From: an uncultured Methanosarcinales archaeon
GTDB lineage: Archaea > Nanobdellota > Nanobdellia > Woesearchaeales > GW2011-AR4
Direction of reading: 5' to 3'
Length of the DNA: 64,000 nt
Assembly (NCBI GenBank): GCA_964650285.1
Contig: CAZYSP010000004.1
Span: 354-64,353, forward strand
Below are positions 6,618 to 53,293 of this stretch, in pieces. The stretch's first letter is position 1; the number at the start of each line of letters is the position of its first letter. The notes beneath the pieces are model-generated. The model was not told the origin of the DNA, ran no database searches, and was given only the letters and a program-made list of their open reading frames with translations. The translations under genes were made by a program, and so were the position numbers.

Positions 6618-8687
6618 TTAGTTTTTTCTTTTTTCTTTTAATTTGTTGATATGAACTTCATCAGGAATTGTTGTTCTGTCATAAGCAATTCCGTTTCCGA
6701 TTGGTTTCCATCCCTCTTCCTCGGCACGAAAACGTAAATGCTCACCTATTGCTTCTATTAAAACATCTTTAGGTATTTCAGAAAATTTTCCGGAATCTAC
6801 TGCCTTTTTTTCAATATATGATGGAAATACCTTAAATCCGGTACGTTTGTCTTTCTCTAGAGCCCTATCTACAAACTTGTTTAATGAATTACCTAACCTT
6901 GATTTTTGCTGTTTTTTCGGAATAGGATGTATTTTTTCACTTGAGTCATTGGATTCAAATAATTCGACCAATTTTTTCAATTGGGATTTATAAAGTTTGT
7001 TGCCTTGGTTTAGGTCAACATATAAAGTAACTGCGTTTGTTCTTTGGCCTAAAATTTCTACCGAAGCTGCTCCACGACGCCCTTTACCAATGATGTCGTT
7101 TGGGTAGATCTGACCAAAAACATCAATTGCTGTATACAATACCTTCTCCAACTGGTCTTTAGGCACAGTTAGTTTAGCTAATCTTCCACGAAGTACAGAC
7201 CATGCTGCTAAATGTTCGGGGTCAGATATATTCTTCTTTATATCACTTTTAAGAAATCCTATATCCTTAACATCGTCAAGTAATCTGATTGCATCTTTAG
7301 TTAGCGGTTTTTTGAGAGCTGTTGTTAAAACATCTTTTAAATAATTAGGGTTATCTAAAACTCTTGATCCACAAATTTCAGAATCTGTAGAAATAATCAA
7401 TTCTAGATCCTTTTTACCGCGTGGAAAACCTATACTGAGATTTCCTCTTACATCAATTGGTATATAGAACTCATGAAATAATCCCCCTTTCCTGATTGTT
7501 GAATAATGTTTACCAATATTGACTGGACATAAATCGATTAATCCGATTTCTCTTGAAATTTTGTCAATTTCCTCTTTATCAAAAGTAAGATTTTGAAAAT
7601 GATAATATTTGGAATAATGAGTTTTTTCTTCTAACCCCCCACATTTCCGCTCGTACATTGCAAGTACTGAATGGAGTTTTTTTGTCAATTTCCTTTTACT
7701 ATTATTTAGGACAGTTAATTGACTACTATATTTTTGGTCGATTTTTTCACTTAATTTGACCTTTATTTTTAAATTTCTAATATCATTGTTTAATTTGTTT
7801 AATTCAATAGCATCGTTTCTTGCTGCTTCTGAGATTTCAGAATATTCCATTTCGAAAAGATTTTTATAAAATGAATTTTTTCTAGAGTTCCAGCTCAATC
7901 TAGAAAGTCTTCCTCTTTCCTCATCTATCACATCTTTTCTGAATAAAATTCCTTCAAATTCGTATACAGCGTAATCAAGATGTGATTTTAACTTGTTTCC
8001 TTTGTAGATGTAAACTCCTAACTTTGTTTTAATATTATCCCTTAAATTCTCTCGTTGATGGTTCAACTCATTTATTTTTTCGGCTGATTTTATATCTTCC
8101 TTTTTATTGTGAGTAAACTGCAACATGTCATATTCGTAGGAAATTCTAGAATAATTACCAATATCTTCTTTTAACTCATTGAGTAACTCGTCCTTGTTTG
8201 ACTCTGTGAGAGATTTTATAGATAAGACTTCTCCCATACTAAAATTATGGGCTTTGGCCAGGTTTTTTCTTGTTCCTGGAGGCAATTGTTCCCAATATTT
8301 TTCGGTTAAAAAGTGATATGTTTTAATTGCTTCTGGACTTAGGAAATAATTAACTCCCTTTTCTGATTCTTTAGTTCTTGAACTTAGTAAATAATTATCT
8401 CCCTTTTCAGATTCTTCAGTTCTTTCTTCTAATAGGGATGCAAAAGTATACCAAAAATCTTTATCTTGTTTGCCTACGAACGTAGAATAATCAGATTCTA
8501 AGCTATGTACAATATTTTCCAATTTGTTTTGAGGAGGAGATGCTAAATCTATACTTCCCCTATATTCTATCACTGGCGCATTATCTCTAAACTGCTTTAA
8601 AGAAGCTTCTTTCATTACTCTAAGTAGAGAATCAACTTTATGTAGACGTTCAGTTGGTTTATAGTTTTCGAATAACATAATTATCAC
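6618..8687 (-). CDS. Large hypothetical protein (ORFan)
   Basis: 689-aa open frame with BRE/TATA-like CGAAAGATTTATA upstream; no recognisable motif. Confidence 0.7.
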   Translation of the reverse strand: MIIMLFENYKPTERLHKVDSLLRVMKEASLKQFRDNAPVIEYRGSIDLASPPQNKLENIVHSLESDYSTFVGKQDKDFWYTFASLLEERTEESEKGDNYLLSSRTKESEKGVNYFLSPEAIKTYHFLTEKYWEQLPPGTRKNLAKAHNFSMGEVLSIKSLTESNKDELLNELKEDIGNYSRISYEYDMLQFTHNKKEDIKSAEKINELNHQRENLRDNIKTKLGVYIYKGNKLKSHLDYAVYEFEGILFRKDVIDEERGRLSRLSWNSRKNSFYKNLFEMEYSEISEAARNDAIELNKLNNDIRNLKIKVKLSEKIDQKYSSQLTVLNNSKRKLTKKLHSVLAMYERKCGGLEEKTHYSKYYHFQNLTFDKEEIDKISREIGLIDLCPVNIGKHYSTIRKGGLFHEFYIPIDVRGNLSIGFPRGKKDLELIISTDSEICGSRVLDNPNYLKDVLTTALKKPLTKDAIRLLDDVKDIGFLKSDIKKNISDPEHLAAWSVLRGRLAKLTVPKDQLEKVLYTAIDVFGQIYPNDIIGKGRRGAASVEILGQRTNAVTLYVDLNQGNKLYKSQLKKLVELFESNDSSEKIHPIPKKQQKSRLGNSLNKFVDRALEKDKRTGFKVFPSYIEKKAVDSGKFSEIPKDVLIEAIGEHLRFRAEEEGWKPIGNGIAYDRTTIPDEVHINKLKEKRKN
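8337..8426. repeat. 45-bp tandem duplication inside the ORFan (15-aa repeat)
   Basis: Units 8337-8381 and 8382-8426 encode RTEESEKGDNYLLSS and RTKESEKGVNYFLSP. Confidence 0.85.
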
Positions 8688-23978: not shown

Positions 23979-24701
23979 TTATATTCTTCTTGCAAAGCTG
24001 ATAAAACCAGAATGTCCTATTTGCTGGCTTCTGGGCCTTACTTTTCTATCATCAATTTCCCATTCTCTTTCAATAATTTCAGAAGTCTTTACATGAACAA
24101 AATTTTCATTATGCTCTATTTTTTTAATAAAATCCATGCTTTGCGGTATTGTTGGGCTGTAAGAAACTAAAAAACCACCTACTTTCAAAGCTTTCTTAGC
24201 AACATCTACCGCTCTCCAAGGTTCTGGTAAATCAAATGTAACCAAATCAATATTTTTCTCGTCAACACCTTCATAAATACTTTTATGTTTAATTTCAATA
24301 TTCTTTAATCCCAAATAATCAATATTCTTTTTTACAATTTCAATAAAATCTTCCCTTATTTCATATGTAACAACTTCTTTGACAATATTTGCCAGAAAAC
24401 AACATAATGCTCCAGAACCAGAGCCAGCATCAACAACTTTGCTGTTATTGTTAATTCCGGTTTCTGCCGCAATTAATCCAATATCCTTCAAAGGTATAAT
24501 CTGGGCATCTCTTTTAATTTTTTTGTACAAATCAATAAAATAAGGATCAAAAACAGTAAATTCTTTTTTTGTGTTGGAAATTACTTTGCCTGTTTTTTTC
24601 CTCAAATCATTTTTTTTAAAAAAGCCATACTTTGTATGGAAATCCTTACTTGTATCTTTAATCAGAAATTTATCTTTCTTATTCATCAAAACTTTTGCCA
24701 T
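23979..24701 (-). CDS. trmI: tRNA (adenine-N1)-methyltransferase Trm61/GCD14 family
   Basis: DAGSGSG, YEIREDF, FDLPEPW, YSPT...Q, HSGF; true start ATG 24701 (the longer ORF runs through the tRNA). Confidence 0.92.
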   Translation of the reverse strand: MAKVLMNKKDKFLIKDTSKDFHTKYGFFKKNDLRKKTGKVISNTKKEFTVFDPYFIDLYKKIKRDAQIIPLKDIGLIAAETGINNNSKVVDAGSGSGALCCFLANIVKEVVTYEIREDFIEIVKKNIDYLGLKNIEIKHKSIYEGVDEKNIDLVTFDLPEPWRAVDVAKKALKVGGFLVSYSPTIPQSMDFIKKIEHNENFVHVKTSEIIEREWEIDDRKVRPRSQQIGHSGFISFARRI

Positions 24702-24779
24702 AATAAAATCTAGAATAAGTGCAAATTTAAAAACATTGTTATAAAATAAAAAATTTATTTCTTCTTTTCTAAAAAAATA

Positions 24780-24910
24780 CGGGTCAGAAGGGATTCGAAC
24801 CCTCGACCTACAGCTCTCCTCTAATGAATAGAAGGCTGTCGCTCTTTTTGGCTTCGCCAAAACCTTCTCGAAACAGGTTTCTCGAAGTATCCAAGCTGAG
24901 CTACTGACCC
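24780..24910 (-). tRNA. tRNA-Arg(UCU) with two introns (D-loop 20a/21, 43 nt, 24846-24888; 37/38, 13 nt, 24816-24828)
   Basis: Acceptor GGGUCAG/CUGACCC; anticodon stem ACAGC/GCUGU around CU-UCU-AA after splicing; both introns form BHB motifs (UUGG/CCAA; CUUC/GAGG). Confidence 0.9.
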
Positions 24911-24948
24911 ATTGACAAGAATAAGTTTTATTATTTCTTTATAAATGT

Positions 24949-25191
24949 TTATTTAAATCTATACTGTAAGAAAAGATTCATAGCAAAAAAGAATATCAAA
25001 GCAAGGCCCATTAGCACTACTAAAGCCCAAACAAGCCTCTTGTCATTGCCAAAGCCAAACGGAATAAACCCAATAAAACCACCAACTGCTACTTTAGTAT
25101 CCTTATTTGTACTTGTTAAAGCACCTATAAAGACTAATGCAAAGCCTATTAAGATTACTAAAATGCCTATTGGTATTAGATTATTGTTCAT
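24949..25191 (-). CDS. DUF131-like small membrane protein
   Basis: GGFIGFIPFGFG motif between TM segments. Confidence 0.7.
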   Translation of the reverse strand: MNNNLIPIGILVILIGFALVFIGALTSTNKDTKVAVGGFIGFIPFGFGNDKRLVWALVVLMGLALIFFFAMNLFLQYRFK

Positions 25192-27517: not shown

Positions 27518-27632
27518 CGCCGAGGGTGAGATTTGAACTCACGTGCCCCGAAGGACAAAGGATTTTTATGACAGTCCTTGAGGAAAATAGTCCTAGCAAT
27601 CCTTCGCAATGGCCAGGCTATGCGACCTCGGC
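27518..27632 (-). tRNA. tRNA-Ser(GCU) with 30-nt intron at 37/38 (27564-27593)
   Basis: GCCGAGG/CCUCGGC acceptor, G73, long variable arm GUCC-UUCG-GGGC, AAGGA/UCCUU anticodon stem. Confidence 0.88.
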
Positions 27633-27727
27633 ATTAAAGAAAGTAATTGTAATTTTATTTATAAAACTTATTATAAAATCTGATAAATATCAATATCTTT
27701 TTAAATAAAAAAATCAAAAACAAACAA

Positions 27728-38021: not shown

Positions 38022-38111
38022 CCAGATATAGAATTTTTAGAATGTATATAAGTTTTTCTAGATATACCCACTAAACAAAAACCTTTATAAAACCAAAATA
38101 CCTACTAGCTA

Positions 38112-38379
38112 TGGGCTAGGCTGGTGTACTGGTCCTACACTGTAACTCTAAACGGACCTTATGAGAGGGCTGAAGCCTGGAAAGAGGCATTTGCTTAGCT
38201 TAGTGGTCTTGATTTCAACGTTGAGGTTCTGTCCTCTTGGGCTGTATTTTTTGGAAATCAGTCAGGATGGGAACATAGCAGCTGTAACCTTTTGATATGG
38301 TGCTTAGGGGGTAGCGGAACTGAGGAGAAATCAAGGTAAGCTGCTTTGCTTTGCTTGTGTCCATTTCCAGGCGCGCCCA
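38112..38379 (+). ncRNA. Signal recognition particle RNA (apparently lacking helix 6)
   Basis: GGGCUAGGC 5' end, UGUAA Alu motif, GGUCC/GGACC loop-loop pairing, helix 5 arms CCUGGAAA/UUUCCAGG, helix 8 CAGG-AUG-GGAA-CAU-AGCAG; TATA at about 38085. Confidence 0.92.
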
Positions 38380-38421
38380 CTTATTTTTCTGATTAGGCAT
38401 TATAAAAATACAAAGAAAAAA

Positions 38422-53035: not shown

Positions 53036-53078
53036 AAACAAAACATTTTAAAATAATATACAAAACTAATTCTATTAT

Positions 53079-53293
53079 GCGGGGATGCCGGAGTGGCCAA
53101 ACGGGACAGAATTAATGTCTAAGCTTAGGTCGCTTATGTAGGTAACCTGTTAGCTTAGTGCTTACGTGGGTTCGAAACAGCTTTTTTGCTTACGCAAAAA
53201 ACCTGGGAAAATGCGGCGAACTTCCCTTTAGTCGTTCACCTAGGATTTTGCTACGCAAAATCAGAAAAGCTGGCGAAAGTCCTACTCCCCGCA
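53079..53293 (+). tRNA. tRNA-Leu(UAG) with three introns (30/31, 13 nt; 37/38, 15 nt; 59/60, 103 nt at 53177-53279)
   Basis: GCGGGGA/UCCCCGC acceptor, A73; spliced anticodon arm ACAGG-CUUAGGA-CCUGU; each intron supplies a BHB central helix (GGAC/GUCU, CUUA/UAGG, UUCG/CGAA). Confidence 0.88.

Follow-up and report, generated by a model that had tools for sequence, protein, structure and literature searches.

The window, i.e., the whole 64-kb stretch of DNA that was analyzed, carries on its forward strand a tRNA-Leu(UAG) gene at positions 53079 to 53293, which specifies a 215-nt precursor with three introns. Exon 1 (53079 to 53109) comprises tRNA positions 1 to 30, namely the 5' strand of the acceptor stem, the D-arm, and the first 4 nt of the anticodon stem, and is followed by intron 1 at position 30/31 (53110 to 53122; 13 nt, AATTAATGTCTAA), with a relaxed BHB and the bulges AG↓A and AA↓G (arrows mark the cut). 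Exon 2 (53123 to 53129; 7 nt) corresponds to positions 31 to 37 and includes the anticodon UAG, and intron 2 (53130 to 53144; 15 nt, TCGCTTATGTAGGTA) lies at the canonical position 37/38, with bulges GG↓U and UA↓A and a 2-bp inner helix. Exon 3 (53145 to 53176) covers positions 38 to 59, i.e., the 3' strand of the anticodon stem, the long variable arm, the 5' strand of the T-stem, and the T-loop UUCGAA. Intron 3, 103 nt in length, interrupts the T-loop at position 59/60 (53177 to 53279) and belongs to a same-site family found also in tRNA-Gly(UCC) and tRNA-Lys(CUU). Exon 4 (53280 to 53293) supplies position 60, the 3' strands of the T-stem and acceptor stem, and A73; the CCA end is not encoded. 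All these parts are on the plus strand, and splicing in silico yields an 84-nt class II tRNA-Leu(UAG) with discriminator A73 in the ARAGORN cloverleaf.

No feature was reported at 53079 to 53293 by either ARAGORN or Rfam at gathering threshold when the 64-kb window was scanned; ARAGORN returned tRNA-Met only, and Rfam returned tRNA-Met and the archaeal SRP RNA (38109 to 38382, plus strand; RF01857, 126 bits). The suspicion of the earlier note that standard scanners may miss the gene is therefore borne out for these two programs. Two other tRNA genes in the window were likewise unseen by both. One is a tRNA-Arg(UCU) gene (24780 to 24910, minus strand; spliced length, 75 to 76 nt), with a 42- to 43-nt D-loop intron containing the hairpin UUUUGGC-GAA-GCCAAAA, whose boundary is ambiguous between two registers, and a 13-nt intron at 37/38; both introns have 4/4 BHB central helices. 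The other is a class II tRNA-Ser(GCU) gene (27518 to 27632, minus strand); its intron measures about 30 nt, lies at or close to 37/38, and has a relaxed central helix with fewer than 4/4 pairs. Altogether, the window has four tRNA genes with six introns among them, and three of these genes are interrupted. The Leu, Arg, and Ser genes are preceded, at a distance of about 25 to 40 nt, by similar A/T-rich boxes: AAACATTTTAAAAT (53041 to 53054, plus strand), read as promoter-like from its sequence at about -38 to -25 from the first tRNA-Leu base, AAACATTTATAAAG (24937 to 24950, minus strand), and TTTTATAAAT (27657 to 27666, minus strand), respectively. These boxes probably represent archaeal TATA/BRE elements, each serving a separate tRNA transcription unit. 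An ORF for a GCD14/TrmI-type tRNA m1A58 methyltransferase (23979 to 24860, minus strand) overlaps the 3' part of tRNA-Arg, a curious juxtaposition of a T-loop methylase gene with tRNA genes that have intron-split T-loops. Gene callers ran ORFs into unrecognized tRNA genes both here and in a relative, L061, where a 134-aa gene call (2501 to 2905) starts inside a T-loop intron.

The GC content of the window is 31 to 34%, and the SRP RNA is of archaeal type. Marine assemblies, those of TARA among them, contain a PurL identical to that of the window. The closest GTDB genomes (55 to 85% PurL identity) are labelled Woesearchaeota, Nanoarchaeota, or Nanoarchaeia, and the named homologues of the 118-aa ORF downstream of tRNA-Leu are assigned to "Candidatus Woesearchaeota archaeon." An affiliation with Thaumarchaeota, which the marine origin, a GC content of about 33%, and DnaK might suggest, was rejected on the basis of these genome and protein labels. 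The earlier note had placed multi-intron tRNAs mainly in Thermoproteales. Such genes are indeed known there (PMC4090602), but the present host is a marine DPANN archaeon carrying Woesearchaeota/Nanoarchaeota labels, and disrupted tRNA genes are reported to be frequent in DPANN (PMC5829648). We also observed DnaK-GrpE-DnaJ, a full arginine biosynthesis cluster, and purine biosynthesis genes in the window, a fairly rich metabolism for a DPANN genome.

The intron boundaries were established by comparison with orthologous genes. At the locus, the order is LSm-L37e-tRNA-orf118, and the 118-aa ORF starts 11 nt downstream of tRNA-Leu. Homologues of this ORF (38 to 97% identity) occur in marine and groundwater Woesearchaeota assemblies, and the DNA around eight of them led to the orthologous tRNA-Leu(UAG) at the LSm-L37e-tRNA-orf118 site. 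PurL was rejected as a synteny anchor, with tRNA-Leu present in only 4 of 45 loci; the tRNA is instead linked to S8e-LSm-L37e and, downstream, to the 118-aa ORF. L064 has at the syntenic site an intron-free tRNA-Leu gene that is identical at 84 of 84 positions to the in-silico spliced product of the window; it scores 55 bits against Rfam tRNA (threshold, 29) and is called Leu(tag) by ARAGORN. Furthermore, exons 1 and 2 are contiguous in L064, L030, L051, L068, and L070, and in relatives with contiguous exons 3 and 4, TTCGAA is fused directly to TCC. Because intact homologues have the exons joined at these points, each of the three segments is an insertion at the position given above, and the earlier assignment of a tRNA-Leu(UAG) gene with introns at 30/31, 37/38, and 59/60 proved exact in coordinates and sequences. 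The ARAGORN call on the spliced product is itself weak evidence for exact boundaries, since brute-force deletion combined with ARAGORN, tried on a neighboring gene, was far too permissive and accepted many alternative deletions around the anticodon loop.

The splice motifs were examined in a fixed BHB register: for an intron at X/X+1, exon bases X-5 to X-2 pair with intron bases n-5 to n-2, the bulges are X-1, X↓i1 and i(n-1), i(n)↓X+1, and the cut falls after base 2 of each 3-nt bulge. The central helix has 4/4 pairs in all three introns (chance, about 0.02 per intron with boundaries fixed). It is formed by G25-G26-A27-C28 with GUCU in intron 1, two bases being taken from the anticodon stem, by C32-U33-U34-A35 with UAGG in intron 2, and by U54-U55-C56-G57 with CGAA in intron 3. 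Intron 1 has an outer helix of 1 bp and no inner helix, a relaxed motif whose 5' site lies effectively in a hairpin loop, and for this reason it would need a broad-specificity endonuclease. The outer helix of intron 2 lengthens from 1 to 6 bp once intron 1 is removed, which predicts that intron 1 leaves before intron 2; such sequential removal has already been described for closely spaced archaeal introns (PMC8450103). In intron 3, the outer helix is the T-stem (5 bp), the bulges are AA↓A and AG↓U, and the inner helix, CAGCUUUU... with ...AAAAGCUG, has 8 to 11 bp, with one unpaired base opposite the 5' bulge (a 3x1 internal loop). This BHB was reproduced by the unconstrained MFE fold of the whole 215-nt precursor and recovered in unconstrained MFE folds of six of the seven family members. 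The introns thus differ, and the gene as a whole falls short of a strict hBHBh' motif, i.e., outer and inner helices of at least 2 bp abutting the bulges. The description in the earlier note, that each intron supplies a 4-bp central helix with cuts in 3-nt bulges, stands for the pairing of all three introns, but a full BHB is too generous for the relaxed intron 1. Introns at 30/31 occur in four lineages (the window, L061, L063, and L067), at lengths of 13, 13, 21, and 28 nt and all with 4/4 central pairs, and the central helix of intron 1 covaries, GGAC/GUCY being replaced in L063 by GGUC/GACC (compensatory A-U to U-A).

Intron 3 was confirmed to be a structure of nested palindromes, consisting of an outer stem, two near-identical hairpins of the form UUUUGC-N3-4-GCAAAA, and a middle CCUGGG...CCUAGG domain. 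The 5' strand of the inner helix (h'), CAGCUUUUUU (53178 to 53187), pairs with the 3' strand, AGAAAAGCUG (53263 to 53272). Hairpin 1, UUUUGC-UUAC-GCAAAA (53184 to 53199), has a U-run in common with the inner helix; the middle domain, in which CCUGGG...CCUAGG enclose GGCGAAC/GUUCACC (53202 to 53244), was derived from aligned sequences; and hairpin 3, UUUUGC-UAC-GCAAAA (53246 to 53260), is a near-repeat of hairpin 1. The intron ends with an unpaired G, CGAA as the 3' strand of the central helix, and AG of the 3' bulge (53273 to 53279). The fold has a z score of -3.0, and none of 200 shuffles was equally good. Across six family members, all cells of the inner helix are paired, and 5 of its 10 pairs have compensatory changes. 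Between the Leu and Gly copies, the outer stem of the middle domain changes from C-G to U-A and GGCGAAC/GUUCACC becomes GGUUUGU/ACAAACC, and hairpin 3 of the Gly copy shows a compensatory G-C to C-G change (UUUUCC/GGAAAA), so that the pairing of all three hairpins is kept in the Leu/Gly subfamily through compensatory changes. No C (RUGAUGA) or D (CUGA) boxes or H/ACA features are visible in the intron 3 sequence, and an Rfam scan of the intron at an E value of ≤10 gave two noise-level matches only. Neither group I nor group II self-splicing introns were indicated by an Rfam intron family match, and at 103 nt intron 3 compares with >200 nt expected for these. A reading as a MITE-like DNA element was also rejected; the terminal stem resembles terminal inverted repeats, but no target-site duplication is visible.

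RNA contigs over the tRNA-Leu gene were found in four marine metatranscriptomes. They span 53085 to 53285 (identical to the window), 53128 to 53292 (two runs, variant strain), and 53182 to 53292, and the flanks have zero depth in all four, whereas, for the sample behind two of these RNA runs, a DNA run covers both flanks at about 17x. Because the RNA is confined to the gene while the same-sample DNA runs through the flanks, the signal is a gene-limited, intron-containing transcript. No spliced joint was detected in the four RNA runs; this is uninformative, since tRNA-Met, which has no intron, and the Ser and Arg precursors, which are shorter, likewise went uncaptured in these libraries. The RNA contigs seen are all unspliced, and the DNA of the same communities includes intron-free alleles; junction reads in metatranscriptomes are therefore ambiguous unless linked to the flanks. 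The four RNA runs gave no intron-only or circular-junction contig of intron 3. In the contig from run X4 (53182 to 53292), a Gly-like 5' exon (...GCTCGCTATCCGGGTTCAAA) is joined to intron 3 and the Leu 3' exon, with a TTCAAA T-loop variant hosting the same intron 3; shared intron sequence probably led the assembly to produce this contig as a chimera.

The orthologous tRNA-Leu genes of related marine and groundwater populations carry from zero to three introns. L064 has none; L068, L070, L030, and L051 have the 37/38 intron only; L034 and L047 combine a D-loop intron with 37/38; L067 has 30/31 and 37/38; L063 has 30/31 together with a T-loop intron at 54/55; L065/L066 and L069 have 37/38 and 59/60; and L061/L062, L059/L060, and the window have all of 30/31, 37/38, and 59/60. 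The window gene itself is identical on seven metagenome contigs from different samples (L001 to L005, L007, and L008), the L059/L060 variant departs from it inside intron 3 only, and no other strain variation was seen. The three-intron layout is retained in the diverged L061 with different intron sequences. The T-loop intron of L063 (tRNA-Leu upstream of 2501) is 30 nt long, its central helix (4/4 pairs) being built from the T-stem and its inner helix having 10 bp; its position at 54/55 indicates that the T-arm has been hit at more than one position in the lineage. We also observed that 37/38 introns of relatives, 30 to 48 nt long, share an arrangement of CUGA/UGAG, a short hairpin, and (G/U)AUGA (L030 2482 to 2595, L034 3360 to 3499, L051 2932 to 3049, L061 2322 to 2534, and L068). 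This resembles a box D'/C' K-loop and is a candidate L7Ae site; the 15-nt intron 2 of the window has lost the arrangement.

Relatives of intron 3 were sought by searching a metagenome collection with both intron ends (26 fixed end bases) and the interior left free. Besides the Leu variant, the scan returned tRNA-Gly(UCC) (L056/L058), which has a 103-nt 59/60 intron and a canonical intron, and tRNA-Lys(CUU) (L057), with a 113-nt 59/60 intron; in both, the insertion site is exactly TTCGAA↓...↓T. The seven copies start with AC(A/G)... and end with ...CGAAAG, and in each a single unpaired base (G, A, or U) separates the inner helix from CGAA. The end likeness of the Gly and Lys copies is built in by the search pattern, which does not affect the interior comparison or the synteny-derived copies of L061, L065, and L069. 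In gap-free mini-constructs of T-arm, BHB, and inner helix from six distinct 59/60 copies, three of which (L061, L065, and L069) were found by synteny, 114 of 114 cells are paired and 8 pairs have compensatory changes, versus 48 to 62% of cells paired in slid controls. With the pattern-fixed ends excluded, the interior of the window Leu intron is 73% identical to the Gly copy (z = 11) and 62% identical to the Lys copy (z = 4), as against 41 to 53% (z about 1) to the orthologous Leu introns of L061, L065, and L069; the last two form a subfamily of their own (L065 versus L069, 75% identity, z = 8). Family-wide, the interiors vary in length (69 to 113 nt), hairpin layout, and sequence, and the splice scaffold alone is shared. 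The relationships of the introns thus disagree with those of the host genes, the interior matching Gly and Lys copies and no orthologous Leu intron significantly, from which we infer that intron 3 has moved between tRNA genes and lineages.

The distribution of the family was also followed in the communities. The Gly contig (L058) is present in run X17 and absent from runs X20 and X5, where the window population reaches about 17x and 3 to 4x, respectively; its abundance profile differs from that of the window population, so the Gly copy belongs to a different organism or population. In another sample, the Gly orthologue lacks the long insert. In DNA runs, intron 3 has a depth of about 240 to 430x versus about 17x for its flanks, and loose ends join it to other exons, implying that in these communities the family far exceeds this one locus in abundance. 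The 64-kb window itself contains one 59/60 family copy, and none was found in the other loci examined, the L058 copy being of another population. A covariance model (R1) search of 577 kb of loci added no family members, nor did a structure-only regex over 788 kb, apart from one probably spurious match in L038, and viral contigs gave no match to the intron 3 pattern. Directly downstream of the family-bearing tRNA-Gly in L058, an Rfam tRNA call (6957 to 7058, 40 bits) spans 102 nt, and because of this span that tRNA probably contains an intron too.

Taken together, we regard it as highly probable that a marine DPANN archaeon of the Woesearchaeota type has here a functional tRNA-Leu(UAG) gene with three archaeal introns, which would be protein spliced (BHB) and the third of which derives from a mobile T-arm family. 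Transcription of the 215-nt precursor is documented by the RNA contigs. The following steps are proposed from motif geometry and established archaeal biology: a splicing endonuclease would cut each 3-nt bulge following its second base, and an RtcB-type ligase would join the exons. Among the called genes covering the 64-kb window, the extent of our tRNA and splicing-enzyme census, no tRNA_int_endo (EndA) or RtcB Pfam family was found. Intron 3 is predicted to be the easiest substrate, with the T-stem as outer helix, its own 8- to 11-bp stem as inner helix, A58-A59 plus the first intron base as 5' bulge, and U54-U55-C56-G57 paired with the 3'-terminal CGAA as central helix. Introns 1 and 2 probably leave in order: the helix of intron 1 borrows G25-C28 and would compete with the anticodon stem, which could form only after intron 1 is removed and would then give intron 2 a canonical outer helix. 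As the whole splice scaffold of the 59/60 family appears to be built from the near-universal T-arm sequence GGUUCGAA↓UCC, such an intron could sit in any tRNA. A stronger version of this idea, which we offer only tentatively, is that the 59/60 introns are an actively spreading "T-arm docking" element, in which GGUUCGAA↓UCC of any tRNA, the CGAAAG end of the intron, and its terminal stem make up the scaffold; the element might be insertable into, and cleanly spliced from, any tRNA gene, be multicopy across marine Woesearchaeota populations, and perhaps yield an abundant stable RNA.

Three other explanations were weighed. The 59/60 intron might descend vertically from an old tRNA-Leu insertion, with the Gly and Lys copies going back to separate old insertions and no recent movement having occurred; 59/60 introns with the same end motif do extend among Leu orthologues as far as L069, where the neighboring protein is 57% identical. 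We consider this unlikely, however, because the interior resembles the Gly and Lys copies of other organisms and not the orthologous Leu introns, presence and absence are patchy among close relatives, and a Gly orthologue without the long insert exists. The gene might also be a decaying pseudogene, that is, a former tRNA-Leu with three insertions that is transcribed but never matured, decoding being left to another gene. The exclusively unspliced RNA contigs, the weak motif of intron 1, and the intron-free Leu alleles of related organisms would all suit this idea. Yet the exons have no mutation relative to the intron-free orthologue (84/84), every insertion is exactly in BHB register, the diverged L061 keeps the three-intron layout although its intron sequences differ, the lineage has its Leu(UAG) gene at this syntenic site, and strain variation is restricted to intron 3, which together make a pseudogene very improbable.

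The remaining alternative concerns the role of intron 3, which could host a functional noncoding RNA, e.g., a stable and possibly circular RNA released by splicing, with the tRNA gene as its expression platform. The length and good fold of the intron (z = -3.0), the compensatory maintenance of the three hairpins between Leu and Gly copies, its high abundance in community DNA, and the capture of intron-containing RNA alone among the regions tested in all four metatranscriptomes are consistent with such a role. On the other side stand the missing C/D and H/ACA boxes, the lack of a credible Rfam match even at an E value of ≤10, and the four RNA runs without an intron-only or circular-junction contig; moreover, the family interiors differ in length (69 to 113 nt), architecture, and sequence around a common splice scaffold, and structural conservation could simply serve correct presentation of the BHB. 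A functional RNA in intron 3 thus seems quite improbable, although less so than a pseudogene, and we retain the reading of a functional tRNA-Leu(UAG) gene interrupted by three protein-spliced introns.

Multi-intron tRNAs, both noncanonical sites, and intron transposition have already been published, and such genes were expected in DPANN. Indeed, 30/31 and 59/60 are listed noncanonical sites, three-intron genes are known, and intron transposition has been described for Thermoproteales (PMC4090602). The BHB models of tRNAscan-SE 2.0 were trained on introns of Crenarchaeota/Euryarchaeota and Thaumarchaeota, and the paper on that program gives "up to three" introns per gene (PMC8450103). In several DPANN lineages, alpha4 endonucleases with the L3 loop have been assigned, the lineages with such enzymes have more tRNA gene disruption, and unidentified disrupted tRNA genes have been predicted in DPANN (PMC5829648). 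Our literature search, of incomplete coverage, found no report of a long structured 59/60 intron family across tRNAs in Woesearchaeota. What is added here is an intron-free allele identical to the spliced product, a series of zero to three introns at one locus, and a long mobile T-loop intron family on the invariant T-arm. The series, which includes that allele, is a natural one for intron gain and loss. For annotation, Woesearchaeota MAGs will look tRNA-poor when they are not, as suspected for DPANN in PMC5829648, because ARAGORN and Rfam miss interrupted genes (three of four in the window). As to mechanism, a family always docking at 59/60 on the invariant T-arm would provide a concrete, testable model for the spread of protein-spliced introns between tRNA genes.

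The multi-intron genes of Thermoproteales resemble the tRNA-Leu gene in having up to three BHB introns per gene, noncanonical sites including 30/31 and 59/60, relaxed motifs, and closely spaced introns that need sequential removal, and in being missed by standard scanners. They differ in their hosts, hyperthermophilic crenarchaea as opposed to a mesophilic marine DPANN archaeon, and the T-loop intron here is 103 nt long and multi-hairpinned, whereas most noncanonical introns of Thermoproteales are much shorter. An example is tRNA-Pro(UGG) of Pyrobaculum islandicum, for which introns at 25/26, 37/38, and 56/57 are given (Sugahara 2007/2008, as cited in PMC4090602 and PMC8450103). Within DPANN, pre-tRNA-Cys(GCA) of ARMAN-2 ("Ca. 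Micrarchaeum") is described as carrying a 59/60 intron with an hBH motif (Fujishima 2011; it served as substrate in PMC5829648). It is alike in its T-loop site and in a nonstrict motif needing a broad-specificity endonuclease, but belongs to a different tRNA and lineage with an epsilon2-type enzyme, and we saw no sequence link between its intron and intron 3.

Another structured archaeal tRNA intron of comparable length (about 100 nt) is that of pre-tRNA-Trp, which encodes a box C/D sRNA (Singh 2004, as cited in PMC4090602). According to that account, it lies at 37/38 and its C/D boxes guide methylation, whereas intron 3 lacks such boxes and matches no Rfam family. Finally, transposed tRNA introns in the sense of Fujishima 2010, as outlined in PMC4090602, are near-identical or plainly homologous introns in tRNAs of different identity, implying gain by movement. 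The tRNA-Leu intron family fits this transposition signature of Thermoproteales, because intron and host-gene relationships disagree; relative to the transposed introns as outlined there, all copies seen of the present family are at 59/60, their scaffold is the invariant T-arm sequence, and they are spread over different organisms in marine communities.
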